NCBI GenBank assembly: GCA_035622585.1 | Contig: DASPVC010000060.1 | Location: 119,096-183,095, forward strand | Length of the DNA: 64,000 nt | Reading direction: 5' to 3' | Source of the DNA: Candidatus Acidiferrum sp. | Lineage (GTDB): Bacteria; Acidobacteriota; Terriglobia; Acidiferrales; UBA7541 | Shown: positions 10,638-35,893 of the stretch, in pieces | How positions within the stretch are numbered: position 1 is the first letter of the stretch | How the letters are laid out: each line of letters opens with the position of its first letter | Made by a program: the position numbers and the translations under genes | Notes under the pieces: model-generated | The model's database searches: none | The model's input: the letters and a program-made list of their open reading frames with translations, nothing else | Told to the model about the DNA's origin: nothing

Positions 10638-11462
10638 CTAGTTGATCCAGCTGTCCGGCCGTGACGGTGGCTTGTCACGGTGCTCGCGGACATAGACTTC
10701 GAATTTCTTGCGCAGTCTGCGGCGCTTCCAATCCGAGAAAAAATTCCGCGAGTTGTAGAGGAATGAGCCCCGGCGCAGGTAGAGATACCCAACCAACATT
10801 CCGCCCAAGTGGCAAACGTGACTCACGCCATCGCCCGTGGCACCTATAGTCAGAAAGAATTCAATCGCGCCAGAAACAATCACGAAAAGGCGCATCGACA
10901 GGGAGATCGGCAAAGGGAAGAACCAGACTTGGCGATGGGGCATGACTACGGCGCACGCGAGCAGAATTCCATAGATCGCTCCGGATGCGCCGATAGTCGA
11001 GGCGTGTAGAAGCCCCGGGCCAGCGAAACCCAACGCCACCACCAAAAATCGGACACCCATGTCGATCAGTCCAGCGCCGATCCCGCACAGAAAGAAATAG
11101 GTGTAAAACTTGCGCCTTCCCCACGTGTGTTCGAGATCGGCCCCGAACATCGCCAGGTACAGCAGGTTGAAAAAGATGTGGAGCAGGCCTCCATGCAAGA
11201 ACAGGTAGGTAAGAGGCTGCCAAATGTAGCCGTGCAGAAGCACGTCAGCGGGGATTAGGCCGAACCATCTGGTCCAAAAATTCCACCCATCCGCGCGGAA
11301 GAACAACAGGGACAGTTCTTGCAAGAGGAAAACCCCTACACAGGCGAGGCAAATCGTCTTGACGGCGCGGGGAAAATAGCCGCTCAGATTAAACTGGTAG
11401 CCGTAGCCGCGGGAAAAGGAGCCCACGAACGTCAGTCTACGGCCTGGGCGAGACGGAGTCAA
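10638..11462 (-). CDS. Rhomboid-family intramembrane serine protease
   Basis: Multi-TM protein with the catalytic GASGAIYG and HLGGMLVGYLY motifs. TTG start in the ORF track. Confidence 0.85.
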   Translation of the reverse strand: MTPSRPGRRLTFVGSFSRGYGYQFNLSGYFPRAVKTICLACVGVFLLQELSLLFFRADGWNFWTRWFGLIPADVLLHGYIWQPLTYLFLHGGLLHIFFNLLYLAMFGADLEHTWGRRKFYTYFFLCGIGAGLIDMGVRFLVVALGFAGPGLLHASTIGASGAIYGILLACAVVMPHRQVWFFPLPISLSMRLFVIVSGAIEFFLTIGATGDGVSHVCHLGGMLVGYLYLRRGSFLYNSRNFFSDWKRRRLRKKFEVYVREHRDKPPSRPDSWIN

Positions 11463-11661
11463 AGACTGCCAATCGTGACGTGTTCTGCGCGCCGGGGCGG
11501 TCGTCTCCTAACATGCGTCTGAATCAGAGGGTCGGCTCCCGAGACCGGGATGCGCCGTGCACTCTGGCCTTGAATGCTTGTCACGAGCAAACGCCCGTGG
11601 TGCGACGCCAGCGCGAGAGGGTGTACCTTGTGACGGCGCATTTCTTGCGCGGTGAAGTACG

Positions 11662-12519
11662 GTGACAACCAACTTCTCGAGGGCCATTGGCGCAAGGAAG
11701 CGGAGCGCGCACGTATGTGCGCGTGTCGTGCGTGTTGTAACAACCGCGGTGCGAACCGCGATTCCGAATGTAGCTTTCGCGGTCTTCCTGCTGGTCGGCT
11801 CCGGTCAAGCACCGGTTATTGCGCAGGGCGGACCACCTCTCCTCACGAACGACCCAGGCACACCGGGGAACGAAAAATGGGAAATCAACATCGGTGTGAT
11901 GCAGGTGCTCCGAAGCGGAACGAACATTCTGCAGTTGCCGCAGATCGACCTAAATTACGGGTTGGGCGACCGCATCCAGTTGACGTACGAAGTGCCCTTC
12001 GTCTGGCAGAGCGCGACCGGGCAGCCGAATGCAAGCGGATGGAGCAACGGATTCCCCGGAGTCAAATGGCGATTTTTCGATCAGGGCGAAGATGGGTGGG
12101 CGATTTCGACATTCCCGCAAATCGAAATTCAGGGGCCGAGAGGTTCGGTGAAGACGGGTATTGCCGACGGGGGCACGCGTTTCTTGCTGCCGGTGGAAGT
12201 AAGCCATCCGATCGGGCCGCTCGAAGTGAATTTTGAAGCCGGATATTTCTTCCCGCTCAATTCGCCGCACTCGCGCAACGAGCGCATCCTGGGACTTGCG
12301 ATGGGACACATGTTCAATCCAAAGTTCGAAGCGATTGGCGAGGTGTACAACGATGCGGTGATGGGCGTGCCTCCCCAAAATACGACGTTCGACCTTGGCG
12401 GGCGATACGAATTTCACAAAAACCTGCTGCTGCTTTTCATGGCCGGACGCAGCTTCAGCGGAAATTCGAGCGGGCAACCCGAATTTCTCGGGTACGTGGG
12501 GCTACAGATTCTCCACTGA
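11662..12519 (+). CDS. Putative outer-membrane beta-barrel protein (MetA-pathway/phenol-degradation-like transporter family?)
   Basis: Signal-like AFAVFLLVGSGQAPVIAQ. Alternating beta-strand pattern with a terminal aromatic (YVGLQILH). Start codon is uncertain. Confidence 0.5.
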   Translation: MTTNFSRAIGARKRSAHVCARVVRVVTTAVRTAIPNVAFAVFLLVGSGQAPVIAQGGPPLLTNDPGTPGNEKWEINIGVMQVLRSGTNILQLPQIDLNYGLGDRIQLTYEVPFVWQSATGQPNASGWSNGFPGVKWRFFDQGEDGWAISTFPQIEIQGPRGSVKTGIADGGTRFLLPVEVSHPIGPLEVNFEAGYFFPLNSPHSRNERILGLAMGHMFNPKFEAIGEVYNDAVMGVPPQNTTFDLGGRYEFHKNLLLLFMAGRSFSGNSSGQPEFLGYVGLQILH

Positions 12520-12560
12520 ACGGGATGAGCCGCGGAGCAGAGCGAGAGGCTGGATCCGCG

Positions 12561-12893
12561 TCAACGCGTGCTCAGCGCGTCGATCTTGGCGGCGAGGATG
12601 AAATCGCTTTCGGTGAGGCCGTTGATGGCGTGCGTCCACGTGGTGATTTCGGCTTTGCCCCACGCCAGCAGGATATCCGGATGATGGCCCTGCTGCTCGG
12701 CCAGCTCGCCTACCTCATTCACGAACGCCAGCGCCTGAACGAAATTCGGAAACTTGAAAAGACGCACGATGTGATGCCCGTCGATGACCCTCCATTCCGG
12801 CACCTGCTTCGCAAGCGCTTCGAGCTCTTTTCCCGCGAGCGGCGGGATACCTCCACGGCACGGGACGCAATTCTTGCTGGCCAGATCGGTCAT
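12561..12893 (-). CDS. Pterin-4-alpha-carbinolamine dehydratase
   Basis: 110-aa product from the internal ATG, with the GHHPD motif and ELAEQQGHHPDILLAWGKAEITTWTH. Confidence 0.85.
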   Translation of the reverse strand: MTDLASKNCVPCRGGIPPLAGKELEALAKQVPEWRVIDGHHIVRLFKFPNFVQALAFVNEVGELAEQQGHHPDILLAWGKAEITTWTHAINGLTESDFILAAKIDALSTR

Positions 12894-13041
12894 AAAGGCA
12901 GCCCTCCTCAATTCATCCGTCGGCGTGGATTGTACCGGAACAGGCTGAAGCCCGGATAGCCACAGCATGGTTTGCGGCGCGCCATTTCTGCTATTCTTTG
13001 ACGCTTCGTTAAGTCGAAAATCCGCCGGGCGAGGATCGAGA

Positions 13042-13584
13042 ATGGCCGACGAAATCCAGGAACTCCAGGAACAAGCTGAAGAGGGCTCGCACCATCCAAG
13101 CCTTGCGCCTGTGACCGTGACGATGGCGATTCTGGCCGTCCTGGTTGCCGCGGTATCACTGCTGGGCCACCGCGCGCACACCGAGGAATTGCTGCTGCAA
13201 ACCAAGTCCACTGATCAGTGGGCCTATTATCAGGCGAAAGACATCCGGCGGCATACCTATGAACTCTTTCTCGATGAAACCTCGGTTTTTTCGCTTCAGA
13301 ACTCCGAACAGGTCGACAAGCTGAAAGAGAAGTACGCGAAAGAGGTGGAGCGTTACCGCGACGAAATGAAGGACATCGAAGCCGAAGCCAAAAAAGCAGA
13401 AGACGAAGTGAGAGTGCAGCAGCGGCGGGCAGACCGTTTCGATCTCGGTGAGGTGATGCTCGAAGCCGCGCTGGTAATCTGCTCGATCACGCTGCTGACC
13501 AGAAAGCGGATCTTTTGGGGGATGGGATTGGTGCTGGGCTTGGCCGGTCTGGCCATCGGCGCCGCCGGACTTCTCATCCGATAA
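13042..13584 (+). CDS. DUF4337-like membrane protein
   Basis: Starts at MADEIQELQEQAEEG. Has a TM segment, QWAYYQAKDIRR, a coiled region and a C-terminal TM pair. Confidence 0.6.
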   Translation: MADEIQELQEQAEEGSHHPSLAPVTVTMAILAVLVAAVSLLGHRAHTEELLLQTKSTDQWAYYQAKDIRRHTYELFLDETSVFSLQNSEQVDKLKEKYAKEVERYRDEMKDIEAEAKKAEDEVRVQQRRADRFDLGEVMLEAALVICSITLLTRKRIFWGMGLVLGLAGLAIGAAGLLIR

Positions 13585-13612
13585 TCGGCATTGAGAACGG
13601 CGGGGTCCCTAC

Positions 13613-13981
13613 CTAATTCGCAATGGGCAGTTGGAAGCGAAGACCAGCTTTGAAATTCCCATCAATGATCACCGTCACCTGCATGGGATTAAAACCGTCC
13701 TTGCTCAACTTCAGGAAATACGTGCCATTCTTGGCGTGATGCCACGAAAAACGCCCATGTCGATCCGTGACCACTCGATCGAAACAGTTCCTCCATCTCT
13801 CCTGGCATCGTTCAACAACCGCTCCCTCTAAGGGCGCAGCCGATGCATCCAACACGGTTCCAGAAAGCGAGCGACTGTGGAATGGCTCGACCATTTCGAC
13901 CGAGTATTGCGAGGCCGCTGACGCACACGACAAGAACATGGCCAACATTATTAACAGAGGGGCGAGTAAGGCCGTCCCCAT
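13613..13981 (-). CDS. Small secreted carboxypeptidase-regulatory-like domain protein
   Basis: Signal peptide plus GTVLDASAAPLEGAVV...TDRHGRFSW...GTYFLKLSKDGF. Confidence 0.6.
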   Translation of the reverse strand: MGTALLAPLLIMLAMFLSCASAASQYSVEMVEPFHSRSLSGTVLDASAAPLEGAVVERCQERWRNCFDRVVTDRHGRFSWHHAKNGTYFLKLSKDGFNPMQVTVIIDGNFKAGLRFQLPIAN

Positions 13982-13993
13982 GGTCTTCTCAAC

Positions 13994-14869
13994 TCAGCGC
14001 CTACCGGACGCAGCCGTGCGCGCCTCCACGTACTCGCGGACGTAGTCGCCAAAAATCCTTTCCAGCCTTTGCGCCATCGGACCGCGCGTGACGGGCACTT
14101 TGTGGCCGGCCACCTCACTCACGGAAATGACGCCGCGATTGGTGGAAGAGATCAACACTTCGTCCGCTGTGTAGAGATCTTCAGGATAGAGAGTGCGCTC
14201 CTCGACCGACACGCCCGCGTGCGGCCCGACTTCCAGCACGATGCTGCGAGTCACTCCCTCCAGACATCCGGACGATAGCGGAGGCGTCGTCACCTGGTCC
14301 CCGTGGACGCAAAAGATGTTCGCGGCCGTGCATTCGGACACTTCTCCGCGCTCGTTGAGGAGCACAACTTCGTCGTAGCCCGCCTGCTGCGACTCGTGAA
14401 GATTCCAGACATTGTTGAGCCAGGACGTGACCTTGACGCCGGCGAGCGGTGAAGCCGCGTGCCGCCCGTGCTCGCGGAGCATCAGGCGCGCCGGATCTCG
14501 ATGGGGCGGCAGCCCAGCCGAGCAGATGAGCAGATCAGCCGCCGGAAATTCCTCGTCGCTGCGCCAGAAGCCGGACTGGTTGTACACGATGTAGATTCGC
14601 GCGCAGCCCTCGCGAACTTCATTGGCGCGCAGAACTTCGTTCATCTGATCGTGTACTGCTTCGGCGTCGAACGGGAACGGACAATACGTCTTTTGCGCGT
14701 CGCGCGAGAGCCGCGCCCAGTGGCGCTCGAAAGCGAACGGAATTCCTTCGATGATGCGGATCGTGGTAAACAGCCCCCATCCGCTCAGCAAGCCCGATTG
14801 ACCGGGAGACAGCCGCACGTCTTCGACAGGCAGCAAACGGTGATTATGAAAGACGAATCGATGGATCAT
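13994..14869 (-). CDS. Class IV aminotransferase (branched-chain aminotransferase / aminodeoxychorismate lyase family)
   Basis: Fold-type IV motifs: LSGWGLFTTIR, EVVLLNERGEVSECTAANIF and EGVTR. ATG at 14869. Confidence 0.8.
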   Translation of the reverse strand: MIHRFVFHNHRLLPVEDVRLSPGQSGLLSGWGLFTTIRIIEGIPFAFERHWARLSRDAQKTYCPFPFDAEAVHDQMNEVLRANEVREGCARIYIVYNQSGFWRSDEEFPAADLLICSAGLPPHRDPARLMLREHGRHAASPLAGVKVTSWLNNVWNLHESQQAGYDEVVLLNERGEVSECTAANIFCVHGDQVTTPPLSSGCLEGVTRSIVLEVGPHAGVSVEERTLYPEDLYTADEVLISSTNRGVISVSEVAGHKVPVTRGPMAQRLERIFGDYVREYVEARTAASGRR

Positions 14870-15027
14870 TTCACCTTCCCCGAATCCTTCTCCCCAGCGC
14901 CTTCGATGATTGTATCGCACAACGAGCCGCGCTGCCTGACACGCCACGCAGGCACGGCTCAAAAGAGAAATCCGGCGGCGAGAGGCTATCTCGCCGCCGG
15001 ATTCCGATACCGCGGGATACGGAGACC

Positions 15028-16773
15028 CTATTGCTGCTGTTGCGCGGGCGTTGCCTGCTGTTGCTTGGCGACGTCAGCCTTCGCCGCAGCAGTGACGTTC
15101 GCTCCAGGCTTCTGATAACGCGTCAAGTACGGCATGAAGGGTGTGACCTCGAACGGCATCTTTTCGCGCGCCGAAAGCAAAGCCACCGGCTTGGCTTTGA
15201 CGAGCTCGACGCGATCGGTCCACGGATCGAGCTTCACGCGCGCACCGATGGGCAGCGCCGCGATTTGATCGACCTTATCCGGCTGCAAGGCTGGTCCGGT
15301 GCTTGCTAGGCCTGATCCGAGCGCGACGCTATTGCCGACATGGGGGTTGATGAGCGCTGGAAGCGCTTTGGATTCCGTATCGAGCTGCTTGAGGAAAAGG
15401 GTGGCGTTCGTGAGCTTGTCCTTATACGGCGAATTCTTCAAGAGTTCGACGGCCTTTTGGTTCGCGGCCTGAACGTCGGCGGCGTTGTCGCGGAACGAAA
15501 AATGGCCCAGCGCCTCGACGGTCGAGACGTTGGTCATATCGTTGAAGCCCCACTGGTCGGTCGCGGGCTTGGTGACGATGATGCCGCCTAGTTCCTGCGC
15601 GAGCATGGCCGCAAGACTAGCTTCATCCGGAAGCACGTCGATCAGACCGCGGCTCATCACGATCGTATGGCCGATGGCAAACGACTCAAGCGTGCCGGTA
15701 AGCAGCACGCGGCAATGGATTTCCGGCTGAATGTCGAGATTGTTGGTGACTTCCAGGTTGTTGACGACGGTCTCGAGCACTTTGTCAATTTCGTTCGGGG
15801 GCGCCAGCAAGCCGGTGCGCTGCAAACGATCGATGACGTTCACTTCGGCCTGATGCTGCCATTCGCGCTCCGCTTCGATCGGCGAACGATCCACGGGCTG
15901 CGCACCTTGATCCTGTATTGCGGTGGGCGACTCGATGGTGAGCTGGCTGAATTCCTCTTCGTGGCCGGCGTTCTTCAGATCGTAGCCCCACAGGCGTGTC
16001 TGGGCTTTGAAGTGGACATGATTGCCCATGAAGTCTTTCAGGTCGTTTTCTTGGCTGTAAACGAACGCGGGCAACCAGAGACCGGGCTGCACGTTCATGC
16101 GCCAGCTATCGAAGTGAATGTTAAAGCCGTTGAGGCCAGCGAGCGGCGTATACACGCCATTGAAGCGGACCATCGCGAAACCCTGATCCTCCGCCCAAAT
16201 CCGGCCCTTGAAACGCCCTTTGCCAGACTTCGGCAGTGGCGTGACGTCGAACACGAGGCAACGAACCTCGCCCAAAAATTCCCTGCCGACGTAGTCGAAT
16301 TCATAGTGCTGGCGGTCGAATCCGTTCGTATCCAGATAGATCATCTGGAGGAAGCCCTCGGGCACATACGACGATTCGAAAAAGCCGGCGACGTGAGATA
16401 TGGGATTGAACTGGTCGAGCTTGCCCTTCTTCCTCGACAGCATGGAATTATCGACCACTCCCTGGGCGAGATTTGCCTGCCCGAGGAAATAGTGATCCTT
16501 CACGGGGATCGCGCCCATGTCCTTGTCGGGCCTCATATCCTGGATATATGTCTCGATGATCGGGTTAAACCGCCGGATCGTGGCGATCTCGTCGTGCTCG
16601 CGCGCGATGATGCGATCGATGGCTTCGTTGACTGTGGTGACAGGGCCGGAGGCCGAACTGCCGGCCTGCGGCTGGGTTTGATCCGCCGTCTGTGTCTGTG
16701 TCTGCGCGCCGGCGAGGCCCGCGAGAGCCCCCGCCAGGATGACCGACACCGAGAGGTTTTTCCACGTGCGCAT
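15028..16773 (-). CDS. Secreted protein with a degenerate M48-peptidase-like segment
   Basis: Signal peptide present. ESFAIGHTIVMSRGLIDVLPDEASLAAMLAQELGG aligns by eye to the M48 xAFAxxG...GLL...ELAGVLAHEIGH block, but HExxH reads QELGG (about 15584-15598). Confidence 0.6.
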   Translation of the reverse strand: MRTWKNLSVSVILAGALAGLAGAQTQTQTADQTQPQAGSSASGPVTTVNEAIDRIIAREHDEIATIRRFNPIIETYIQDMRPDKDMGAIPVKDHYFLGQANLAQGVVDNSMLSRKKGKLDQFNPISHVAGFFESSYVPEGFLQMIYLDTNGFDRQHYEFDYVGREFLGEVRCLVFDVTPLPKSGKGRFKGRIWAEDQGFAMVRFNGVYTPLAGLNGFNIHFDSWRMNVQPGLWLPAFVYSQENDLKDFMGNHVHFKAQTRLWGYDLKNAGHEEEFSQLTIESPTAIQDQGAQPVDRSPIEAEREWQHQAEVNVIDRLQRTGLLAPPNEIDKVLETVVNNLEVTNNLDIQPEIHCRVLLTGTLESFAIGHTIVMSRGLIDVLPDEASLAAMLAQELGGIIVTKPATDQWGFNDMTNVSTVEALGHFSFRDNAADVQAANQKAVELLKNSPYKDKLTNATLFLKQLDTESKALPALINPHVGNSVALGSGLASTGPALQPDKVDQIAALPIGARVKLDPWTDRVELVKAKPVALLSAREKMPFEVTPFMPYLTRYQKPGANVTAAAKADVAKQQQATPAQQQQ

Positions 16774-23627: not shown

Positions 23628-23774
23628 ACGCGCCGCATCCCTTGGCGCGACGGTCGGCGACCTGTCTTGTTCAGACCGATGCTAGGCCTTCCTGGCAATC
23701 GATGTGGTCGCGTTGACTCCGCCGGGCGCGTCATCTACACTTTTTTCTGCGAACCCTTCACAGTGCGCAACGCT

Positions 23775-23814
23775 TCCCCGGTAGCTCAATGGTAGAGCGT
23801 TCGGCTGTTAACCG
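23775..23814 (+). repeat. attL: 40-nt copy of the 5' half of tRNA-Asn
   Basis: TCCCCGGTAGCTCAATGGTAGAGCGTTCGGCTGTTAACCG is identical to 35819-35858. The following sequence is unrelated to the tRNA 3' half. Confidence 0.85.
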
Positions 23815-24086: not shown

Positions 24087-24356
24087 ATGTCAGAGGATGA
24101 AAGAGTGGTCGGGCAGAAGCACGTTGAAGCAACAATCGCGGAGATGATGCATGGGCGAGAAGTGCAATCCGATGCGCCCGTCGCGTGGCACCATGACTTT
24201 GACCGCGATGTCTGGATCCTCGAAGTCAGTTCCCGTGGTGAAAAACACCGTTGGAAAATCAGCGGCGAAGATTTAGCTGACTACGCAACTGACCGAAGCG
24301 TCCGCCGAAGAGTCGATGGCCAGTTGCGGATGTACGTCATTCCGCAAAAGACCTAG
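24087..24356 (+). CDS. Hypothetical small protein (89 aa)
   Basis: Canonical SD AAGGAG 7 nt upstream of the ATG. Followed by a hairpin. Confidence 0.6.
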   Translation: MSEDERVVGQKHVEATIAEMMHGREVQSDAPVAWHHDFDRDVWILEVSSRGEKHRWKISGEDLADYATDRSVRRRVDGQLRMYVIPQKT

Positions 24357-24379
24357 CCGTTGCAGTCCCAGTCTACCCG

Positions 24380-24416
24380 AAGCCCCGGCTCGGATTGTCC
24401 CGAGGCGGGGCTTTGT
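24380..24416 (+). terminator. Terminator-like hairpin
   Basis: AAGCCCCGGCTCGG / CCGAGGCGGGGCTT gives a 14-bp stem with one mismatch and a 6-nt loop. The T tract is weak. Confidence 0.4.
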
Positions 24417-24462
24417 TCCATGCTCGCACCGCTTTAATATAACGGTTCGACGGCGTCCCGAA

Positions 24463-25098
24463 ATGAACTGGACCGAGATCGTCAAAACGCTCGGCAGCGT
24501 TCTAATTGGTTCAGGCGCGGGCGTGTGGCTTCTCAAAAGCATTTGGTCGCAGGTGTTATCTCGTGACTTGGAGACATTCAAATCGAACCTCGAAAGTAGA
24601 AATGCCATCGAGATTGAACGATTGAGGGACGAACTCAAAAGAGTAGCTTTTGAACACGAAACCCGCTATGCAAGGCTTCACGAGAAACGCGCGGAGGTCT
24701 TAGAGGAGCTATTCAAGCGGCTGGTGAAGGCGAATCGCGCGTTTTCTGACAGATTCCGCACGGGTCGCTTTGCCGGTGAGCCATCCCTAGAGGTACAAAG
24801 CGAACAGGCAGCAGAAGCAGCCAACCAATTCGTCGATTGGTTTTCTGAGAACATGCTCTTCATTGACGATGCGCTGAGAGAAAAAATTTACAGTGTCAAT
24901 AATCACTTTCTCAACCTGTGGCGCACACAGGCACCTATGTCGGGAGAAGAACGAGGTAGGATTATTTCGGAGTTTTTCAAAGAATCGCCCGCGCTGTTAG
25001 ACGACATTCGAGGGAGAATTCTCGAAATGCTATCGCCGTCAGCGAATGACGGTGGGCCTCAACGAGATCATGGTGGGCTGCCGCGTGGGCGAGGCTAG
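24463..25098 (+). CDS. Hypothetical membrane-anchored protein: one N-terminal TM helix plus a long helical/coiled-coil region
   Basis: MNWTEIVKTLGSVLIGSGAGVWLLKSIW is followed by heptad-like charged helices. The ORF-track start at 24316 overlaps the previous gene, so the internal ATG is preferred. Confidence 0.55.
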   Translation: MNWTEIVKTLGSVLIGSGAGVWLLKSIWSQVLSRDLETFKSNLESRNAIEIERLRDELKRVAFEHETRYARLHEKRAEVLEELFKRLVKANRAFSDRFRTGRFAGEPSLEVQSEQAAEAANQFVDWFSENMLFIDDALREKIYSVNNHFLNLWRTQAPMSGEERGRIISEFFKESPALLDDIRGRILEMLSPSANDGGPQRDHGGLPRGRG

Positions 25099-25139
25099 GC
25101 ATCCCCGTCCTTCGCTATAATTCCAGCAGGACAACTAGG

Positions 25140-26363
25140 GTGACAAACGAAAACGGGAAGGCGCGAGAACTGACCGCGCCAACCGTCAAGACGCTCAAAC
25201 TCTTATTCGCGCGATCGGGGAACAAATGTGCGTTTCCTAGATGCGCCGTTGCGATCATAGACGGCAACACAGTCATCGGCGAAGTGTGTCACATCAAAGG
25301 GGAGAAGCCCGGTGCTGCGAGGTATGACGCCAATCAAACGGCTGCGGAGCGACATGCTTATGACAATCTGATTCTGCTTTGTCGAAACCACCACAGGGTT
25401 ATTGACGATGATGAAGAAGCATACACCGTTGAAAGACTCCACAAAATGAAGAGTGACCACGAACAGCGTGCTGCCGCAATGGCAGAAGATTTTGTCAATC
25501 AAGCAGCGGGACTCTTGATAGACAACTCCGTTACAACATCGAATCAATCTGGCGGGATAACTGCGCATACGGTGAATATTCACAACTATCCGCCGCTGAA
25601 AGCAGAAGCGGCTCCTGTCGATTCATCTAGTCGTTTTCCCGCAGCCGAACCGAAGGACGGTCAGGCTCGATTCCGGCTTCGCGACCAATCGCTCGGAGTC
25701 AACTGGAATCCGATTCCCTACGCCACTGGAATTGACCGCGAAATCTTCCTGTCTGTCGGTGCCGCTATGTGGCTTCGGGTAATGCCTAGGACCAATCAAG
25801 GACGAAGCTGGTCTGCCGACGAGTTGCGCAAGTGTGCTACGCACGGCAACATTACCTTACAGCCTTTTCTGTGGACTAGTCTCGAATATCTTCGGGCTGA
25901 GGACGGTTTCGGAACCTACGCGATAACCGGCAATCAAGAAACTGAAACAAAGTCAGTTGCGTTCGCCTTTGAAACCGGCGAGATTTGGAGCGTGGATACG
26001 TCTATACTCAATATCGACAAGCGGAAAAACCTCTACTTTCTCGACATTGCGAGAGCCTTCGTAGTGGGACTTCATAACTACGGGCTGTTCCTCAGCAATC
26101 TTGGCGTCGAGCCTCCGTTCGGTTGGATTGCCGGACTAGAAGGCGTGAAAGGTTGGAGACTTCAGTTGCCGACGCCACACGGTCGGGCGAGCGTGTTTCC
26201 CGGCAATAGCTGCCTAAGCGAATCCATCACTGCGAACGGCTCTTACGATTTGAAACAGACTCCGGGTGTTGCGCTTCGACCGTTCTTTACGCAAATCTGT
26301 CGGAAGTGCGCGATGGAATACTCAGAGTTCGTGAGATCGCACGTCGAACAGCCGCTGGCGTAG
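25140..26363 (+). CDS. HNH-nuclease-domain protein fused to a ~290-aa C-terminal domain I could not assign
   Basis: N-terminus KCAFPRC...GEVCHIKGE...YDNLILLCRNHHRVID is an HNH (CxxC, His, Asn, HH) signature. GTG start; a TATAAT lies in the 41-nt upstream gap. Confidence 0.7.
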   Translation: MTNENGKARELTAPTVKTLKLLFARSGNKCAFPRCAVAIIDGNTVIGEVCHIKGEKPGAARYDANQTAAERHAYDNLILLCRNHHRVIDDDEEAYTVERLHKMKSDHEQRAAAMAEDFVNQAAGLLIDNSVTTSNQSGGITAHTVNIHNYPPLKAEAAPVDSSSRFPAAEPKDGQARFRLRDQSLGVNWNPIPYATGIDREIFLSVGAAMWLRVMPRTNQGRSWSADELRKCATHGNITLQPFLWTSLEYLRAEDGFGTYAITGNQETETKSVAFAFETGEIWSVDTSILNIDKRKNLYFLDIARAFVVGLHNYGLFLSNLGVEPPFGWIAGLEGVKGWRLQLPTPHGRASVFPGNSCLSESITANGSYDLKQTPGVALRPFFTQICRKCAMEYSEFVRSHVEQPLA

Positions 26364-26531: not shown

Positions 26532-27416
26532 TCAGTACGTGAGCAGAAGACGGTCAGCCACGACTTCTTCCTCAAGGGTTTGCCCATCCATCTGGAAGCG
26601 TCGCAACATGGACCGACCGCAATGAACGAAAATTTCCCGCTCAAATAGTGTCGCTGGGATAGGGAGTTCGCATAGCTTTGAACCGGACTTCTTCGTGCCA
26701 TCAATGCTGACAGCGACATAGACGCCCCGCCGCTTGCAATCTGCTATCACTTGGAACAGATGCTCCAGATCAAACGATTGGGCACCATACAAGATCGTTT
26801 GGCTGTGACTGTACGGCGGGTCGCAATAAACCAAATCACGTTCCTTTGCTTTGGCCATAGCGTCTTCGTAGGGAAGGCAGAGGAATGTTGTCCCTTTCGT
26901 TCGCTGGTGCCATTCATCAACTCGCTCTGCAAAGGACTCAGGGGAAATTGGTTCGTGAATGCCGCAAGGAGTAGACATGTAGCCGTCGTTTTGCCGAAAC
27001 CGCACGACGCCGCCGTAGCAACTGCGGCACAGGAATAGCAGGTCCGCCCCGTTGGGTTTGCGATTGTAGGAAGCCTTAATTTCTTCGTACCCTCTAACCT
27101 TATTGCCAGCCTGCTTCATGCGGTGCCAACGCTTGCGATACCACTCTTTCAACTGTTCGGGATCATCGTGTAGAGTCTGCCAAATCTCTATTAGTGGCGA
27201 GAAATTATCGGATGCAGTCGCGTGCTTCGGCGACAGAGTGGCCAGCACACCGCCGCTTCCGACGAACGGCTCAAAGTAGCGGTTGAACTGTTCTGGGAAA
27301 TAGGAAACGATCTCGTGCGCGAAACGCTGCTTGTTGCCAATCCACTTTAGCAATTGCGCGGTGAAGGGTCTGACCGAGCGCGGGGCGGTCGCTTCATCAA
27401 AAAGTATAAGCTGCAT
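26532..27416 (-). CDS. Dam-like (D12 class, alpha group) N6-adenine DNA methyltransferase
   Basis: KWIGNKQRF, FEPFVGSGGV (SAM motif) and VYCDPPY (catalytic DPPY). Confidence 0.9.
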   Translation of the reverse strand: MQLILFDEATAPRSVRPFTAQLLKWIGNKQRFAHEIVSYFPEQFNRYFEPFVGSGGVLATLSPKHATASDNFSPLIEIWQTLHDDPEQLKEWYRKRWHRMKQAGNKVRGYEEIKASYNRKPNGADLLFLCRSCYGGVVRFRQNDGYMSTPCGIHEPISPESFAERVDEWHQRTKGTTFLCLPYEDAMAKAKERDLVYCDPPYSHSQTILYGAQSFDLEHLFQVIADCKRRGVYVAVSIDGTKKSGSKLCELPIPATLFEREIFVHCGRSMLRRFQMDGQTLEEEVVADRLLLTY

Positions 27417-27444
27417 CGTCTAGGGTCTTCCCAGCGGTCCGCAT

Positions 27445-27465
27445 CATATCCTGTTTTGGGATATG
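27445..27465. promoter_or_regulatory. Candidate C-box operator in the divergent M / C-R intergenic region
   Basis: CATATCC-N7-GGATATG is a perfect inverted repeat. A third CATATC half-site lies at 27477-27482, just upstream of the C gene ATG (27496). Confidence 0.4.
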
Positions 27466-27495
27466 CGTCAAGACTCCATATCATCCTAACATCTG

Positions 27496-27732
27496 ATGGC
27501 AAAGAGTAGCGTCCGAAGAACACACCTGCTGGAATTATTGCGGCAGGTGCGAACTGAAGCGGGCCTCCGCCAAGTAGACCTTGCCAAGAAGTTGCGTCAG
27601 CCGCAGTCGTTCGTCAGCAAATACGAGTCGGGCGAACGCCGTCTAGACCTTCTGGAACTCGGTCAGGTCTGCAAGGCGTGCGGAATCTCGCTGGTCAAGT
27701 TTGTTGAACGGTTCGACGGAAAGGGAGCATGA
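27496..27732 (+). CDS. XRE-family HTH controller (C) protein of the R-M system
   Basis: 78 aa. LRQVDLAKKLRQPQSFVSKYESGERRLDLLEL HTH. Its stop overlaps the next ATG (ATGA). Confidence 0.8.
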   Translation: MAKSSVRRTHLLELLRQVRTEAGLRQVDLAKKLRQPQSFVSKYESGERRLDLLELGQVCKACGISLVKFVERFDGKGA

Positions 27733-28616
27733 AGCCAGATCAGCGTTTCGTCAAGCAGCCGAAACACTTTTGGGCAAACGTTCGTTCGCTGAGTCAGAGG
27801 CTCGGGTACACCGGGGCCGGAAGCCAGATCAAAGTCTTCAGCGTTCCTGAAATCGTTGAAGGTCTGAAGTCCCTTAGTCTCTCTATTGCGCACGTCATCG
27901 ATGCCAAGGACAAACCTACAGGCTTCGGCACCACTCTTCACGACTACTTTGGTCATCGGGCAAAGGTCTTGAACGATTACGTTCGACCACGACTGATGAA
28001 CAAAGAGCGGGCCGCCAAGGAATTTGCCACTCTGTACAAAAAGCTCAAGCCACGTTGCCCGATCCCAATGAACAAACAGAAAGGCGAAAAGAGGGCTGAG
28101 GCATATTTGACCGCCATCGTGAATATGCTGGTTGAGCAGGCTATCGGCGATTTGCCGTGCGACTACGATCCTCGTGTACTCACGACCATTACCCGCGAAG
28201 GCGTTCCGGTGAGGACCTTATCGCGGCGCATTGACGGAGCGTTTCCAAGCAGCATCAACCCGGTGGCGGTGTGGGAAGTTAAGGAATACTACAACACAAC
28301 AACATTCGGAAGCCGAGTCGCCGATGGCGTGTATGAGACGCAACTGGACGGAATGGAGCTTGAAGAACTCCTTGAGCACGAGAAGATTGAGGTCAAGCAC
28401 TACCTCATGGTGGATGACGAGTTCACGTGGTGGCAATGCGGACGTTCATATCTCTGCCGGATTATTGACATGCTTCACATGGGATATGTAGATGAGGTTT
28501 TGTTTGGGTATGAAGTAATTGAGGAGCTTCCCGGTATCGCCAAGCAATGGGTAGAAGTTGAACGCCAGCGGCCCAAGAAAGCCATTGCCCGCACTCATTC
28601 TGTCCAACAGACATGA
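27729..28616 (+). CDS. Putative type II restriction endonuclease (PD-(D/E)xK-like)
   Basis: Translationally coupled to the C gene and divergent from the MTase. RRIDGAFPSSINPVAVWEVKEYY fits D-x13-E-x-K. Confidence 0.6.
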   Translation: MKPDQRFVKQPKHFWANVRSLSQRLGYTGAGSQIKVFSVPEIVEGLKSLSLSIAHVIDAKDKPTGFGTTLHDYFGHRAKVLNDYVRPRLMNKERAAKEFATLYKKLKPRCPIPMNKQKGEKRAEAYLTAIVNMLVEQAIGDLPCDYDPRVLTTITREGVPVRTLSRRIDGAFPSSINPVAVWEVKEYYNTTTFGSRVADGVYETQLDGMELEELLEHEKIEVKHYLMVDDEFTWWQCGRSYLCRIIDMLHMGYVDEVLFGYEVIEELPGIAKQWVEVERQRPKKAIARTHSVQQT

Positions 28617-28625
28617 GTCCGCGCA

Positions 28626-29537
28626 CTAGCCGCGCCGCGAGCGTGCACGCATCGCCGCTTTATACTCCGCCTCGATTTCACTATCTGAAAGGTCGTCCAA
28701 AGCAACCGATTCCGGCACGGGCGCGGGCGTTGCATCGGGCGTGCTCGCCGCGCTGCGCTCGGCTTCTTGGCACGCAGTCCACGCGGCATCAAGCAGCGAA
28801 ATTGTTAGGGGCCTGCCTGCGCAGAATCCGTGAATGTATTCCTCGCGCTCCGGTGTCGGGCTGTAGTTGTCGCGCGAATGCACCCACGCCAGTGCGCACG
28901 CTTCGTCGCAGACATCGCGATAGCGCGGATCATCGAGGATGCGGAACCAGTCAATGTCGCGTCCGTTGAAGGCGTAGTACAAGAAGCGACCGATGCTCTC
29001 CTGAACGAGTCCTTGCTGCGCGTACCTTATGCACTCCAGCCGCTCGTTCTCTGTTAGCTCTCGCGTCGCATCTTTCTTTTGCTCGGCGTCCAGTGCGCGA
29101 CACAGCGACACGAGCTTTTCCATCAATGCGTCGCGGCTTGGAGCCTTCAACATTTTCTTCTCGCCGTCCAAGTCCAGCGTCGCGGTCCATTCGGAACCGA
29201 TCTTGCGAACACGCGCTTCCCACCCGGCCAGATGCACAACGGAATCGCTATGAGCTTCTTCGTATTCCTGTATCAGCGCGGGGTCGCCGGTCTCGCGCAC
29301 AGCGGCTTCATCGAGATTCGACAAAAACTGCTTGAGTGCCTTGGCACCCACGGAACTGTCGGGCGTCAAGCCCGCAAATCGCGGATCGGGTGCGAGCGGG
29401 TCGGTCTCGTCCTGTGCTGCACGCTTCAAATCCGCAGCGTTGAGTGGAAGACCGCGACGGTCAAGCGGCGCTAGTCTCAGCGAATCGCTCACAAATTCGC
29501 GCTCTGCGTTTCGTCGCGCGAGTGTCGTTGGTTTCAT
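28626..29537 (-). CDS. Hypothetical protein (303 aa), second gene of an orphan two-gene operon
   Basis: Strong SD AGGAGG 7 nt upstream of the ATG, 9 nt after the upstream gene's stop. I recognised no domain. Confidence 0.6.
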   Translation of the reverse strand: MKPTTLARRNAEREFVSDSLRLAPLDRRGLPLNAADLKRAAQDETDPLAPDPRFAGLTPDSSVGAKALKQFLSNLDEAAVRETGDPALIQEYEEAHSDSVVHLAGWEARVRKIGSEWTATLDLDGEKKMLKAPSRDALMEKLVSLCRALDAEQKKDATRELTENERLECIRYAQQGLVQESIGRFLYYAFNGRDIDWFRILDDPRYRDVCDEACALAWVHSRDNYSPTPEREEYIHGFCAGRPLTISLLDAAWTACQEAERSAASTPDATPAPVPESVALDDLSDSEIEAEYKAAMRARSRRG

Positions 29538-29546
29538 ATTTTCCTC

Positions 29547-30320
29547 CTAATCATTCAACTCCGTTCCGCACGTAGGCATGTACGGATGCTGGCGCTTGCG
29601 AAGTCGGTCGGTGCGCTTGTGGACTGATTCGCGCTCCGATTCCTGTACGGCTCGGATTCGGAGATGGTCCGCGATGCCCAGTTGTCGGCGCGGCTGGAAT
29701 TGGATCGGCTCAACGGGCGGACGTAGCAATTCAATCCGTTCCGTGATGTCTCGAACCGCAACCTTCAGGTCCAATCCTTCAGCCGCCGCCGCGCGTTCCA
29801 ATGCGCCAAACTGAGCTTGCAATTCACGAAGCCTGTCGGACTCCGCACGATTGAGCGGCGCAGTCGCGCATCGAGCACGCTGCGTCAAGATGCCGTGCGC
29901 GAGTGCTCGGCCATCTTCAATGAGTGAGCGTTGCGCGATTGTTGCCGTGCTCGCTTGCTGGCTCGGTCGTGCTTCGGTCTCGCCTGACGCTCCGTCCGTT
30001 TTCTGGACAGGCGCGTCTGCCTTCGGCGTGGATGGTTCTTCGGCGCGTTGGGCGTCGCTCTCAGCCTCCGTCAGAAATGCAGCAAGTCGAGGATCAATTC
30101 CCGAGAGCGACGATGTGTCCGTGTCCTCTTCGAGTGTGCGCAGCATTTCAGCGACGCGGACGGCGACCTTCGGATGGGTTGCTTCAGCAGAAGCGATCTT
30201 CGCTAGCCACTTTGCGCTCGGCTGGCGCATCTGCGCTAGTGCGGCGAGCTTCGTTCTTACGGGCGCTTTGCGCTCGACGATTCGGCGTAGTGCGGTTTCA
30301 GTTTTGTTCGTTCGAGCCAT
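29547..30320 (-). CDS. Hypothetical Ala/Arg/Glu-rich protein (257 aa), first gene of the orphan operon
   Basis: SD AGGGAG upstream. Low-complexity acidic centre. I recognised no domain. Confidence 0.55.
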   Translation of the reverse strand: MARTNKTETALRRIVERKAPVRTKLAALAQMRQPSAKWLAKIASAEATHPKVAVRVAEMLRTLEEDTDTSSLSGIDPRLAAFLTEAESDAQRAEEPSTPKADAPVQKTDGASGETEARPSQQASTATIAQRSLIEDGRALAHGILTQRARCATAPLNRAESDRLRELQAQFGALERAAAAEGLDLKVAVRDITERIELLRPPVEPIQFQPRRQLGIADHLRIRAVQESERESVHKRTDRLRKRQHPYMPTCGTELND

Positions 30321-30659: not shown

Positions 30660-30788
30660 GTGAAGCGCACAACGATTTGGCTTACCGACCGGCAGCAAAA
30701 GAAGCTAGCCGCACTGTCAAAGAAGACAGGCATCACAGTCGCCGAACTCATTCGGCGGTACATTGATGCCGGACTGGAAAAGGCATGA
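30660..30788 (+). CDS. Small ribbon-helix-helix (CopG/Arc-like) protein, 42 aa; absent from the ORF track because it is under 60 aa
   Basis: Hand translation: VKRTTIWLTDRQQKKLAALSKKTGITVAELIRRYIDAGLEKA. Its stop overlaps the recombinase ATG (ATGA). TTGACT-N16-CATACT lies just upstream. Confidence 0.55.
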   Translation: MKRTTIWLTDRQQKKLAALSKKTGITVAELIRRYIDAGLEKA

Positions 30789-31360
30789 GAATCGCCCTCT
30801 ATTTGCGCGTCAGCACGGATAAGCAGGAGACAGAGAATCAGGCCGTCCAACTCCGTGAGTTTGCAGCGAAGCAGGGCTGGGAGGTCGTCGGCGAGTATTG
30901 CGATTACGAGTCGGGCGCTAAGACGGATCGCGCTGAGTTCAAACGGATGTTTGAGGACGCGAGCCGTCGCAGGTTCGATCTCGTGCTGTTCTGGGCGCTC
31001 GACCGATTGTCGCGCGAGGGTGTATACCAAACTCTCCAGCACCTTGATCGTCTGGAATCCTACGGCGTCGGCTTCCGTTCGTTCACGGAGCCGTACTTCG
31101 ATAGTTGCGGCGTGTTCAAGGATGCCGTCATTGCGATCATGGCGACGCTCGCCAAACAGGAGCGCATCAAGCGGTCGGAGCGGACGCGAGCCGGACTCGC
31201 GCGAGTGAAGGCATCGGGGAAGAGACTGGGCCGTCCGAGACTGACTGTGCGCGCCTCTGAGATAGCCCGCCTTCGCATTGCCGGGCTGTCTGGCCGGGCC
31301 ATCGCTCGCGAGCTTGGTATTTCCGAAGGCTCCGTCCGCCGTATCGCGTCAGCAGCCTAA
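30785..31360 (+). CDS. Serine recombinase (resolvase/invertase family)
   Basis: MRIALYLRVSTDKQ catalytic Ser motif, FWALDRLSR, and a C-terminal HTH GLSGRAIARELGISEGSVRR. Confidence 0.92.
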   Translation: MRIALYLRVSTDKQETENQAVQLREFAAKQGWEVVGEYCDYESGAKTDRAEFKRMFEDASRRRFDLVLFWALDRLSREGVYQTLQHLDRLESYGVGFRSFTEPYFDSCGVFKDAVIAIMATLAKQERIKRSERTRAGLARVKASGKRLGRPRLTVRASEIARLRIAGLSGRAIARELGISEGSVRRIASAA

Positions 31361-31727: not shown

Positions 31728-32285
31728 GTGATAGCCTTGTTCATGGCTGCTTCAATTACGCCTGCGCAGATAATGTTCCGACTTACTCAGCGAGACGTGT
31801 ACAGAGCGAATGTCGCAATAGCGGCAGACAATTTCAAGAAGCCAACGATTGTTCTCGGCCTTGTTTGTATCGAGGTACTGGCCATCGCAGGTCTCGTAGG
31901 ATTTGTGCTCCGAGGGAAAAACACGTTGTATGTGCTCGCAGCAATTGGCGTGGCCCTGTATTTTCCGCTCATCATTTTGTCTTCAATGTTCATTAGTACG
32001 TACTTCGCTGCGAAATCCCTGTTCAAGAGCGACCTAAACCTCCAGAGTGACATTCGCTGTTCCTTTTCGGACGATGTCGTATCCGTCGAGATGGCGACCG
32101 GCGAGTCCAAACTTCTATGGAACACATTTCCTAAGGCGACCGAGAGATCGGACTTTTTCTTACTATACCTGCGAAAGAGCCTAGCGTATGTCATACCTAA
32201 GCGGGTGTTTGCTAACGAGGCGGAAATTTCAACATTCCGCGAACTGCTTCGGCGAAATGTATCGAAAACTTCGCTTTCTCGCTGA
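31728..32285 (+). CDS. YcxB-like membrane protein (two TM helices plus C-terminal domain)
   Basis: Two hydrophobic helices, then LWNTFPKATERSDFFLLYLRKSLAYVIPKRVFANEAEISTFRELL, which is typical of YcxB-like proteins as I recall them. Confidence 0.45.
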   Translation: MIALFMAASITPAQIMFRLTQRDVYRANVAIAADNFKKPTIVLGLVCIEVLAIAGLVGFVLRGKNTLYVLAAIGVALYFPLIILSSMFISTYFAAKSLFKSDLNLQSDIRCSFSDDVVSVEMATGESKLLWNTFPKATERSDFFLLYLRKSLAYVIPKRVFANEAEISTFRELLRRNVSKTSLSR

Positions 32286-34143: not shown

Positions 34144-34671
34144 GTGAAACAGCGCGCGACAAATGAACTGCGAAATCTGCGAACGCTCGCAGACTTCTCG
34201 AATTTGGAGACCGCAGAGCAAGCAGACTACTTCCGCCACAACTACCGTGAGTTTTTGCCAGAGGAGTTTTGGAGACCCGGTGTGCTCTTGGCAGGCAAGC
34301 GGGGGCCGAGCGACTGGAGGTATCTTCAGTCGGGAGTGCGTGCTGCTTGGCGAGAGAAGTTCCCGCCCGACGCATGTCTTTCTCTAATCGTCTTCCTCGC
34401 AATCTCGCCGGAGCAAATCGAAGGCAGCGAGTCGGTCAAGGTTTGGCCGTACCAGAAGGCGATAATGACACTCGCGACTGAGCCGTGGCGCGCCCGGTTT
34501 TGTAAATCGTGCGGCAATCGCTACGTCGCAGACAAGCCGGGGCGCGTCTTCTGTAGCGACAGTTGTGCGAAGGAGGCTCGCAAGTTGTCGAAGCGCATCT
34601 CTTGGACGAAACATCGCGACGAATGGCGAGGATCGAAAAAGCGTCAGCGCGGAAGGAGGCAAGCCCAATGA
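34144..34671 (+). CDS. Hypothetical protein with a C-terminal zinc-ribbon, coupled to the integrase gene
   Basis: FCKSCGNRYVADKPGRVFCSDSC. Its stop overlaps the integrase ATG (ATGA). Confidence 0.55.
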   Translation: MKQRATNELRNLRTLADFSNLETAEQADYFRHNYREFLPEEFWRPGVLLAGKRGPSDWRYLQSGVRAAWREKFPPDACLSLIVFLAISPEQIEGSESVKVWPYQKAIMTLATEPWRARFCKSCGNRYVADKPGRVFCSDSCAKEARKLSKRISWTKHRDEWRGSKKRQRGRRQAQ

Positions 34672-35801
34672 TCTACAAGCGCGGCAAAATCTACTGGTAC
34701 AAATTCCAGTTCGGCGGTGTTGTTCTCCGCGAATCCACGAAACAGCGCAACGACAAAGTGGCGCGGCAAATGGAATCGGCGCACCGCACGTCGTTGGCAA
34801 AGGGCGAGGTCGGCATCCGCGAAAAGAAGCTCGCGCCGACGCTAAGGGAGTTCATGGAGAATCAATTCAGGCCGTGGGTGGAAGCAACCTTCCGCGAAAG
34901 GCCGCGCACGAAAATCTGGTACATCGGCGGCGTCCGCAGATTATCAGAGTTTGCGCCGCTTGCGAGAACACGAATCAACGAGCTTTCGGCAGATATGGTT
35001 CGCGCTTACATCGCAAAGCGGCAGGCGGACGAACTCAACGTCACCTCCATCAATCGGGAGTTGCAAATTCTCCGGCGCATCTTGCGTTTGGCTTCCGAAT
35101 GGGGTGCGGCGGATTCCACTGTGAAGATCAAGTTGCTCCCCGGCGAGCGACGGAGGGAGCGCGTAATAACACCAGAAGAGGAGGCCCGGTATCTCGCCGC
35201 TGCGCCCGACCCTCTGGAGTCATTTTCCACAGTACTGGCCGACACTGGAATGCGCCCAGAAGAGTGTTTCCGGCTTCGTTGGGAGTATGTCACGTGGCTC
35301 AATGGGCGCAACGGAACATTGCTTGTCTCGCATGGTAAGACTCCCGCCGCGCGCCGCGTAATTCCTCTGACGCCTCGCGTGCGCGCGGTTCTTGAATCAC
35401 GTTGGGAGGCAGCGGAAAAACCGGATGACGGCTGGGTATGGCCCGCACAAACGCGCAGCGGGCACATCGAGCCGTCGAGCCTTCGCAAATTGCACAGCAG
35501 GACGTTCGAGACGATCACGGAAGAAGCAGCGAAGAACAATCTGAAGCCGGTCCGACCATTCGTGCTGTACTCATTCCGCCATACGTTCTTGACGCGGCTT
35601 GGACAATCGGGGTGTGATGTGTGGACGTTGGCGCGAATCGCCGGTCACAGTTCCATCAATATCTCTTCGCGGTACGTCCATCCATCCGAGGACGCGGTGT
35701 TGAACGCCATGGCGAAACTGGGTGGGCACAAAAGCGGGCACACTCAAAAGGACACGCCTCGATTGCCGGTTGCGACGAGTGAACGAAGCACAATACAATG
35801 A
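34668..35801 (+). CDS. Tyrosine site-specific integrase
   Basis: SD GGAAGGAGG. Has an N-terminal SAM-like domain. Catalytic signatures are TGMRPEECFRLRW, HSFRHTF and GHSSINISSRYVH. Confidence 0.92.
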   Translation: MIYKRGKIYWYKFQFGGVVLRESTKQRNDKVARQMESAHRTSLAKGEVGIREKKLAPTLREFMENQFRPWVEATFRERPRTKIWYIGGVRRLSEFAPLARTRINELSADMVRAYIAKRQADELNVTSINRELQILRRILRLASEWGAADSTVKIKLLPGERRRERVITPEEEARYLAAAPDPLESFSTVLADTGMRPEECFRLRWEYVTWLNGRNGTLLVSHGKTPAARRVIPLTPRVRAVLESRWEAAEKPDDGWVWPAQTRSGHIEPSSLRKLHSRTFETITEEAAKNNLKPVRPFVLYSFRHTFLTRLGQSGCDVWTLARIAGHSSINISSRYVHPSEDAVLNAMAKLGGHKSGHTQKDTPRLPVATSERSTIQ

Positions 35802-35818
35802 ACGAATTGCATGACTGA

Positions 35819-35858
35819 TCCCCGGTAGCTCAATGGTAGAGCGTTCGGCTGTTAACCG
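35819..35858 (+). repeat. attR: 40-nt direct repeat (5' half of the intact tRNA-Asn)
   Basis: Identical to 23775-23814. Confidence 0.85.
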
Positions 35859-35893
35859 AAATGTTGCAGGTTCGAGTCCTGCCCGGGGAGCCA
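35819..35893 (+). tRNA. tRNA-Asn (anticodon GTT), CCA encoded
   Basis: Hand-folded cloverleaf. Acceptor TCCCCGG/CCGGGGA, D stem GCTC/GAGC, anticodon stem TTCGG/CCGAA with loop CTGTTAA, and T arm GCAGG-TTCGAGT-CCTGC. Confidence 0.9.

Follow-up and report, generated by a model that had tools for sequence, protein, structure and literature searches.

A putative sensor domain without a family name, fused to a Cap5/SPARHA-type HNH domain in a candidate single-gene immune nuclease of Candidatus Acidiferrum

The locus and the 407-aa protein

The genes described here lie in a stretch of 64,000 nucleotides of contig DASPVC010000060.1 of Candidatus Acidiferrum sp. (hereafter the window, with positions counted from its first letter), at the left end of a 12-kb island at a tRNA-Asn gene. 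In an earlier note, made from the letters alone, three plus-strand genes coding for proteins of 89, 211 and 407 amino acids (aa) were taken to form a defence system next to a type II restriction-modification (R-M) system. All three open reading frames (ORFs) were found in place. The sequence makes the 407-aa gene a credible candidate immune nuclease of the single-gene kind, whose defining part is an unnamed and widespread putative sensor domain (residues 165-407, called the C-domain below). The features of the segment are as follows.

24087-24356, plus strand: 89-aa ORFan, with an AAGGAG Shine-Dalgarno sequence 6 nt before the ATG
24397-24411, plus strand: terminator-like hairpin between the 89-aa and 211-aa genes
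24463-25098, plus strand: 211-aa protein, with a hydrophobic helix at the N-terminus and otherwise helical and charged, starting at an internal ATG of a 260-aa ORF
25140-26363, plus strand: 407-aa HNH/C-domain fusion gene with a GTG start, the conserved unit, with 613 homologues
25179-25529, plus strand: HNH effector domain of the Cap5/SPARHA type, residues 14-130 (PADLOC, PDB profile and Foldseek)
25530-25622, plus strand: predicted disordered linker, residues 131-161 (predicted local distance difference test, pLDDT, <50)
25632-26360, plus strand: unnamed C-terminal domain, a putative sensor or regulatory module, residues 165-407 (AlphaFold2 and profile)

The start of the 407-aa protein agrees with the N-termini of its homologues, and the AlphaFold2 model (72 homologues; mean pLDDT 88.8) was composed of two domains. 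The HNH domain begins with a helix (residues 16-26) and carries a zinc-finger set (C30, C35, C81 and H84) and the catalytic-type residues H51, N76 and H85; all of these single residues, together with T18, K20, L22 and F23 of the helix, are at least 90% conserved in the 72 homologues. PADLOC models matching the domain were PDC-M68A (2.5e-32), the CBASS HNH effector (6.4e-22), SAVED_HNH and an HNH-bearing SduA model, with all matches limited to residues 15-119. A profile search of the PDB returned the HNH-APAZ protein of SPARHA (9om4, 8e-25, query residues 13-107) and Cap5 (7rwk and 7rwm, 1e-15), and Foldseek aligned the model with Cap5 (8fmf) with a probability of 1.0 and a root-mean-square deviation of 2.5 Å over about 103 residues. 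The N-terminal HNH nuclease described in the earlier note is borne out by these searches. Through these matches the domain is assigned to the immune-effector clade used in CBASS Cap5 and in SPARHA, and the nuclease is probably active, since its metal-binding and catalytic-type residues are intact and conserved to the extent given above. The HNH domains of Cap5 and SPARHA superimpose, dimerise via the N-terminal helix and are activated by tetramerisation, and this HNH clade has been proposed to occur on many sensor platforms, acting as tetramers or filaments (PMC12738770).

Among the 72 HNH-type members, mean pairwise identity was 63% in the HNH domain versus 38% in the C-domain; the same pattern of a conserved effector and a faster-evolving sensor occurs in pSlfn5 (PMC13056530). 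The C-domain carries the conserved motifs ARFR, WLR, RAEDGxG, TGExWxxDT and PPFxWIAGLxG. No match to it was found in Pfam, NCBIfam, PHROGs, PADLOC or PDB sequences, the isolated domain having been searched in PADLOC at E<=1 and by PDB sequence profile at E<=10. The C-terminal part, which had not been recognised from the letters, thus has no family in these collections, and it mapped to no abortive-infection or other defence family among those compared. In literature searches, made with limited access, no description of the domain or of its architecture was met, and the sole lead was a 'TBP-like' class of pSlfn proteins.

A domain-only AlphaFold2 model (about 245 aa) was obtained with a pLDDT of 88.3 and a predicted template-modelling score of 0.88. 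Neither this model nor the full one had a significant fold neighbour in the PDB or BFVD by Foldseek. The weak fold matches that recurred were to TATA-box-binding proteins (TBP) and AdoMetDC (best E 7e-3, template-modelling (TM) score 0.2-0.3, probability <0.6). By DSSP, the elements of C-domain residues 49-160 follow the order beta-alpha-beta4-alpha, and in the model this part may be compatible with one TBP-type repeat. The fold matches are sub-threshold, and the resemblance to TBP is therefore treated as a lead only.

Architectures and genome context of the C-domain family

A profile of the C-domain (A3) was searched against 1.84 billion cluster representatives (50% identity), with the window protein as the first row of the alignment. 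It retrieved 2,185 representatives at E<=1e-3, 688 of them at E<=1e-10, and the domain was nearly always C-terminal. The N-terminal partner is in the majority of cases TIR-like (FxSWQSD...PNPNV.E.G.A), some members matching CAP12/Pycsar TIR. The other partners were TIR_2/SEFIR (P0090 and P0164; SEFIR also in P0098), HNH, a cytidine-deaminase-like domain (P0140, residues 120-246), caspase (P0097), Hypoth_Ymh/HEPN (P0152), PNP_UDP_1 (P0155), SLFN_AlbA_2 (P0156, at 30-167, with the C-domain at 250-486), a nucleotide cyclase in one member, and helix-turn-helix (HTH) domains. By profile comparison, then, the C-domain stays the same, and what it is joined to at the N-terminus varies among known immune effectors. 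Membership of the C-domain in bSEFIR or PDC-S66 was considered and rejected, the PADLOC matches to these models, and to ThsB, covering the effector part only. At one locus (L038:2242-3228) the C-domain stands behind HTH_3 in a 328-aa protein.

Genome context was inspected at ten loci of homologues (L001-L010), seven with HNH-type proteins and three with TIR/SEFIR or deaminase fusions, and the neighbours varied across them. A scan of one genome per GTDB species with a closer alignment set (A6) gave 35 further loci, from Acidobacteriota, Alpha-, Beta-, Gamma- and Deltaproteobacteria, Dependentiae and Paceibacterota. All-against-all BLASTP of the ORFs within 6 kb in these 35 genomes returned no recurrent neighbour family, the only recurring cluster being of unannotated proteins at 4 of the 35 loci; the C-domain gene is therefore read as a stand-alone unit. 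On sequence comparison, the conserved unit at the window locus is likewise the single 407-aa gene.

The 119 proteins encoded within two genes of the focal genes matched 219 PADLOC families (E<=1e-5), among them Dsr2 (2e-159), PDC-S19 (5e-122), AbiEii (3e-91), OLD (1e-50), AriA of PARIS (5e-46), a type II methyltransferase (MTase), mad2/mad3, Cas1 and SIR2-ThsA. Pfam added three integrases and one Mrr nuclease for the same proteins. For the 82 control genes, taken from beyond 6.5 kb at the same loci, only 6 PADLOC families were matched, the best at 5.8e-10. The immediate neighbours of the family are thus rich in defence genes and the distal ones are not, an enrichment which the earlier note had suggested looking for. 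At two acidobacterial loci (L043 and L044) ORFs of 1,200-1,850 aa flank a TIR-like/C-domain gene on both sides (L043:5631-9266 and 10682-16255); these large ORFs may lie behind the Dsr2 or PDC-S19 matches of the census.

Proposed function and alternative readings

It is judged somewhat better than an even chance that the 407-aa gene works alone, encoding the sensor and the effector of an immune nuclease in one polypeptide and riding as cargo on the 12-kb tRNA-Asn island, and that the 89-aa and 211-aa genes upstream of it are there by chance, as island cargo with no relation to it. The gene would then probably code for a one-gene anti-phage protein rather than for part of a three-gene system. 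The earlier proposal of a candidate defence gene here is supported for the 407-aa HNH fusion, on an island beside an R-M system, but not for the three-gene module.

In the proposed mechanism, suggested by the architecture, the C-domain would serve as a sensor or regulatory platform whose oligomeric state changes on an infection cue. Either a phage protein, which is what other fused sensors respond to, or some feature of nucleic acid might act as the cue. HNH dimers would thereby be brought together into an active tetramer, as described for Cap5 and SPARHA, and the tetramer would cleave double-stranded DNA non-specifically, so that phage DNA is destroyed, the infection is aborted, or both.

A wider reading is held more tentatively, at slightly under even chances: the C-domain would be a widespread infection-sensing module, possibly TBP-like, that switches at least ten effector chemistries within one polypeptide and defines a new single-gene family, of which the window gene would be the HNH branch. 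The chemistries meant are HNH DNase, TIR, SEFIR and TIR-like NADases, deaminase, caspase, HEPN and Schlafen RNases, PNP nucleosidase and nucleotide cyclase. If the family is confirmed, the bacterial immune repertoire would gain a new sensor domain, carried by more than 2,000 cluster representatives (50% identity) and undetected by current Pfam, NCBIfam, PADLOC-2023, PHROGs and PDB. The natural effector swaps would then amount to a ready experiment on one sensor controlling many oligomerisation-activated effectors. The HNH domain of Cap5 and SPARHA would acquire a third, cofactor-free activation platform, and a new single-gene defence family would extend across Acidobacteriota, Proteobacteria and candidate phyla.

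Several points weigh against the sensor-effector reading. The role of sensor is drawn from architecture; the C-domain might instead act as a scaffold or bind a ligand as its receptor, and searches of the PDB and BFVD returned no significant structural neighbour for it. A later-named system is possible, since a recent name could be missed with a PADLOC library dating from 2023, and literature access was limited. Co-transcription of the 211-aa and 407-aa genes in the window is also possible, because the former ends only 41 bp upstream of the latter with no terminator-like site between them. The census of neighbours was based on crude longest-ORF calls and family-level counts with no per-locus breakdown, and about half of the individually inspected contexts (L005, L007 and L008) were housekeeping neighbourhoods.

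The protein was compared with the known systems nearest to it. CBASS Cap5 (7RWK, 7RWM and 8FMF) has a homologous HNH domain, the same size (about 380-400 aa) and the same layout of an N-terminal HNH domain and a C-terminal regulatory part, and activation by oligomerisation is likely to be common to the two. However, the C-domain is not SAVED by sequence or by fold, and matches to the SAVED_HNH and Cap5 models do not go beyond about residue 119. Pfam was run on the island genes, and PADLOC as well on the nine proteins from 24.1 to 31.4 kb, the part at 31.7-35.8 kb being covered by Pfam only; within this scope no cyclase that could act as a cGAS/DncV-like nucleotidyltransferase (CD-NTase) was found, and none was a recurrent neighbour in the 35 loci.

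The best HNH match, to SPARHA HNH-APAZ (9OM4, E 8.1e-25; PMC12738770), includes the region of the N-terminal dimerisation helix, but it stops at residue 106 of 435 of that protein. The 407-aa protein has no APAZ domain, its platform being another, unnamed domain fused within the same polypeptide, and no prokaryotic Argonaute (pAgo) gene was found among the window neighbours in the ORF list, Pfam or PADLOC.

With pSlfn5 (PMC13056530) and bSEFIR the 407-aa protein shares the organisation in one polypeptide, a conserved effector with a faster-evolving C-terminal sensor, the location in defence islands and the swapping of effectors and sensors. The sensor of pSlfn5 is Ig-like, unlike the C-domain, and the PADLOC bSEFIR model matches the SEFIR part only (37-202 of 412). 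'TBP-like' fusions make up 1.5% of pSlfn proteins and are listed as an untested class (PMC13056530); because P0156 is a Schlafen/C-domain fusion, that class may be the same domain as the C-domain.

Three further systems with HNH proteins were more distant. Subunit A of PDC-M68 gave the top PADLOC match over the HNH domain, but only positions 8-115 of the 253 in the profile are covered; PDC-M68 itself is a candidate system of several genes, and neither upstream gene of the window matches any PADLOC model. Septu (PtuA ATPase and PtuB HNH) shares the use of an HNH nuclease as effector; no PtuA or PtuB match was found by PADLOC in the nine island proteins, in keeping with the earlier view that the locus is not Septu, and the Septu HNH is among the monomeric nicking HNH domains that diverged from the Cap5/SPARHA clade (PMC12738770). 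The SduA model of Shedu (PDLC00406) matches through its own N-terminal HNH part only (profile 12-119 of 326), and no DUF4263 was found in the Pfam scan of the 407-aa protein. By analogy, the protein would work like a Cap5 or SPARHA effector while being a member of neither, and it appears closest in kind to single-gene effector-sensor fusions such as pSlfn5.

A nuclease directed by nucleic acid, which is a variant of the sensor-effector model with DNA itself as the trigger, is considered unlikely. The weakly TBP-like C-domain would here bind DNA at modified bases, at ends or at unusual structures, and would target or activate the HNH domain, in the manner of the modification-dependent enzymes McrA and SRA-HNH. 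TBPs are the only fold signal in both the PDB and BFVD, the beta-alpha-beta4-alpha order fits one TBP-type repeat, and the coupling of HNH domains to DNA readers is common (PMC12738770). These fold matches are, however, not significant (E about 7e-3 or worse), the caspase, TIR, PNP and deaminase fusions suggest a general activation switch rather than DNA targeting, and the HNH domain falls in the tetramerising effector clade, not in the dimeric type IV clade.

Less probable again is an orphan second-messenger effector: a synthase encoded at some other locus would produce a nucleotide signal, and the C-domain would receive it, like SAVED in Cap5. The effector palette of the family (Cap5-type HNH, TIR, CAP12/Pycsar TIR-like, caspase and PNP) does overlap with those of CBASS, Pycsar and type III CRISPR, and the conserved Arg, Trp, Asp and Glu motifs of the C-domain are compatible with a ligand pocket. 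Yet no cyclase or other conserved partner was found near any of the 45 inspected family loci, and the fold is neither SAVED nor CARF, the PADLOC SAVED models stopping at the HNH domain. One member has a nucleotide cyclase at its N-terminus and others an HTH domain, which would suit a C-domain that senses upstream of the signal better than one that receives it downstream.

It is very unlikely that the 89-, 211- and 407-aa proteins form a three-component abortive-infection system in which the membrane protein partners the nuclease or senses for it. The genes do share a strand and a tight spacing, including the 41-bp gap described above, and a second assembly of this island (L054) shows the same arrangement. 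This assembly is, however, the only other occurrence of the three genes together. The loci of the closest 407-aa homologues (70%, 55%, 53% and 47% identity; L001-L007), those of the TIR and deaminase cousins within L001-L010, and the 35 loci of the wider family contain neither upstream gene. When the 89-aa and 211-aa proteins were searched by tblastn against all 45 loci, no credible match was obtained, the only alignments being two weak ones of the 211-aa protein in L007 (E 0.19 and 0.36). Conversely, eight loci of 211-aa relatives (83-31% identity; L011-L014 and L050-L053) have no adjacent HNH or C-domain gene and no homologue of the 89-aa gene. An 89-aa gene that stands beside the 211-aa homologues in L051-L053 was considered as a counterpart of the window gene and rejected, as it is on the opposite strand and not homologous.

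The pair of 407-aa and 211-aa homologues was thus not found together outside the two assemblies of this island, and the three-gene system with a membrane-anchored partner, as the earlier note had it, is not borne out in other genomes. No neighbour family recurs in the 35 loci, and the case shows how poorly adjacency on a single island predicts which genes belong to one system.

The description of the two small proteins in the earlier note did hold. The 89-aa gene has its Shine-Dalgarno sequence and its own hairpin, which parts it from the other two genes, although terminator-like sites in the region are no more numerous than expected from shuffled sequence. The protein is an ORFan: two sequences were found among 5.8 billion clustered proteins, the sole relative (79% identity) being on a 506-nt contig, and it has no match in Pfam, NCBIfam, PHROGs or PADLOC.

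The start of the 211-aa protein is supported by homologues that begin at the same residue (tblastn). It has a single hydrophobic helix at the N-terminus (peak of 1.57 at residue 6 in a 19-residue Kyte-Doolittle scan), which is kept in the homologues, and 30% charged residues, so that the predicted single transmembrane helix and charged character agree with hydropathy and conservation. Only 17 relatives were found. There was no match in Pfam, NCBIfam or PADLOC, and in PHROGs only a weak one (phrog_1009, E 3e-4). A paralogue with 83% identity (P0122; loci L011-L013, at 6001-6630 in L011) lies beside a different integrase and a locus for a 1,622-aa RHS/YD-repeat toxin, with no HNH gene. P0122 shares its locus-tag prefix (VEJ46) with the window copy, and hence the same metagenome-assembled genome carries both. 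Because this second paralogue is in another island of that genome, the small 211-aa family seems to travel alone as mobile-element cargo.

It is scarcely credible that the gene is selfish or has a role outside immunity, as an HNH homing endonuclease, polymorphic toxin or island addiction module. It does sit on a mobile island and has weak PHROG matches to phage HNH endonucleases (phrog_740, E 1e-4), but it is free-standing, outside any intron, intein or phage genome, and its HNH domain is most closely related to immune effectors. The part that varies is the N-terminal one, domains for secretion or trafficking are lacking, no immunity gene is conserved next to it, and many homologues are chromosomal rather than on mobile elements. 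The homing endonuclease, a possibility raised in the earlier note, was rejected on the same relatives, the phage HNH PHROGs giving E 1e-4 or worse versus 1e-17 to 1e-32 for defence-type models.

The tRNA-Asn island and its other genes

The island is bounded by perfect 40-nt direct repeats, 12,044 bp apart, the repeat being the 5' part of tRNA-Asn(GTT). An HTH_17 Xis-like gene and a tyrosine integrase make up its right end. The main features besides the three genes above are listed below.

23775-23814, plus strand: left 40-nt direct repeat, a truncated 5' copy of tRNA-Asn
26532-27416, minus strand: D12 adenine MTase (Dam-like) of the type II R-M system (Pfam and PADLOC)
27496-27732, plus strand: HTH C protein of the type II R-M system (Pfam and PADLOC)
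27729-28616, plus strand: restriction endonuclease (REase) with DUF7690/DUF7687 (Pfam; PADLOC REase_II 3.6e-61)
34563-35801, plus strand: tyrosine integrase (Pfam Phage_integrase, E 9e-20)
35819-35858, plus strand: right 40-nt direct repeat, within the intact tRNA-Asn gene (35819-35893)

Both the mobile element and the neighbouring type II R-M system inferred from the letters were recovered, the former through the repeats at tRNA-Asn and the integrase, the latter through the D12 MTase, the C protein and the REase. The AT-rich character of the segment was confirmed in part: GC content was 52-54% at 24-28 kb versus about 58-63% elsewhere in the window, a smaller contrast than had been stated, and the figure of 70% for the host did not hold. 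No paralogues of the 89-, 211- or 407-aa genes were found elsewhere in the window.

The R-M system (26532-28616) is complete and C-protein-controlled, and the gene for the C protein overlaps the start of the REase gene. Other cargo lies at 28626-30320 (minus strand), 30785-31360 (plus strand) and 31728-32285 (plus strand); this set includes two proteins without a family match (303 and 257 aa), a serine resolvase/invertase and a YcxB-like membrane protein. A 257-aa gene is also present in the islands of the HNH homologues at L001, L003 and L004, with no similarity to the window copy by tblastn.

What the island has duplicated is the 5' portion of tRNA-Asn, up to and including the anticodon loop, and not the 3' end. 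The intact tRNA-Asn gene now stands directly behind the integrase gene. Upstream of the truncated left copy the native sequence is retained, and in it a promoter-like site (TTGACT-17-TACACT, 23713-23741) is oriented into the island, towards the 89-, 211- and 407-aa genes.

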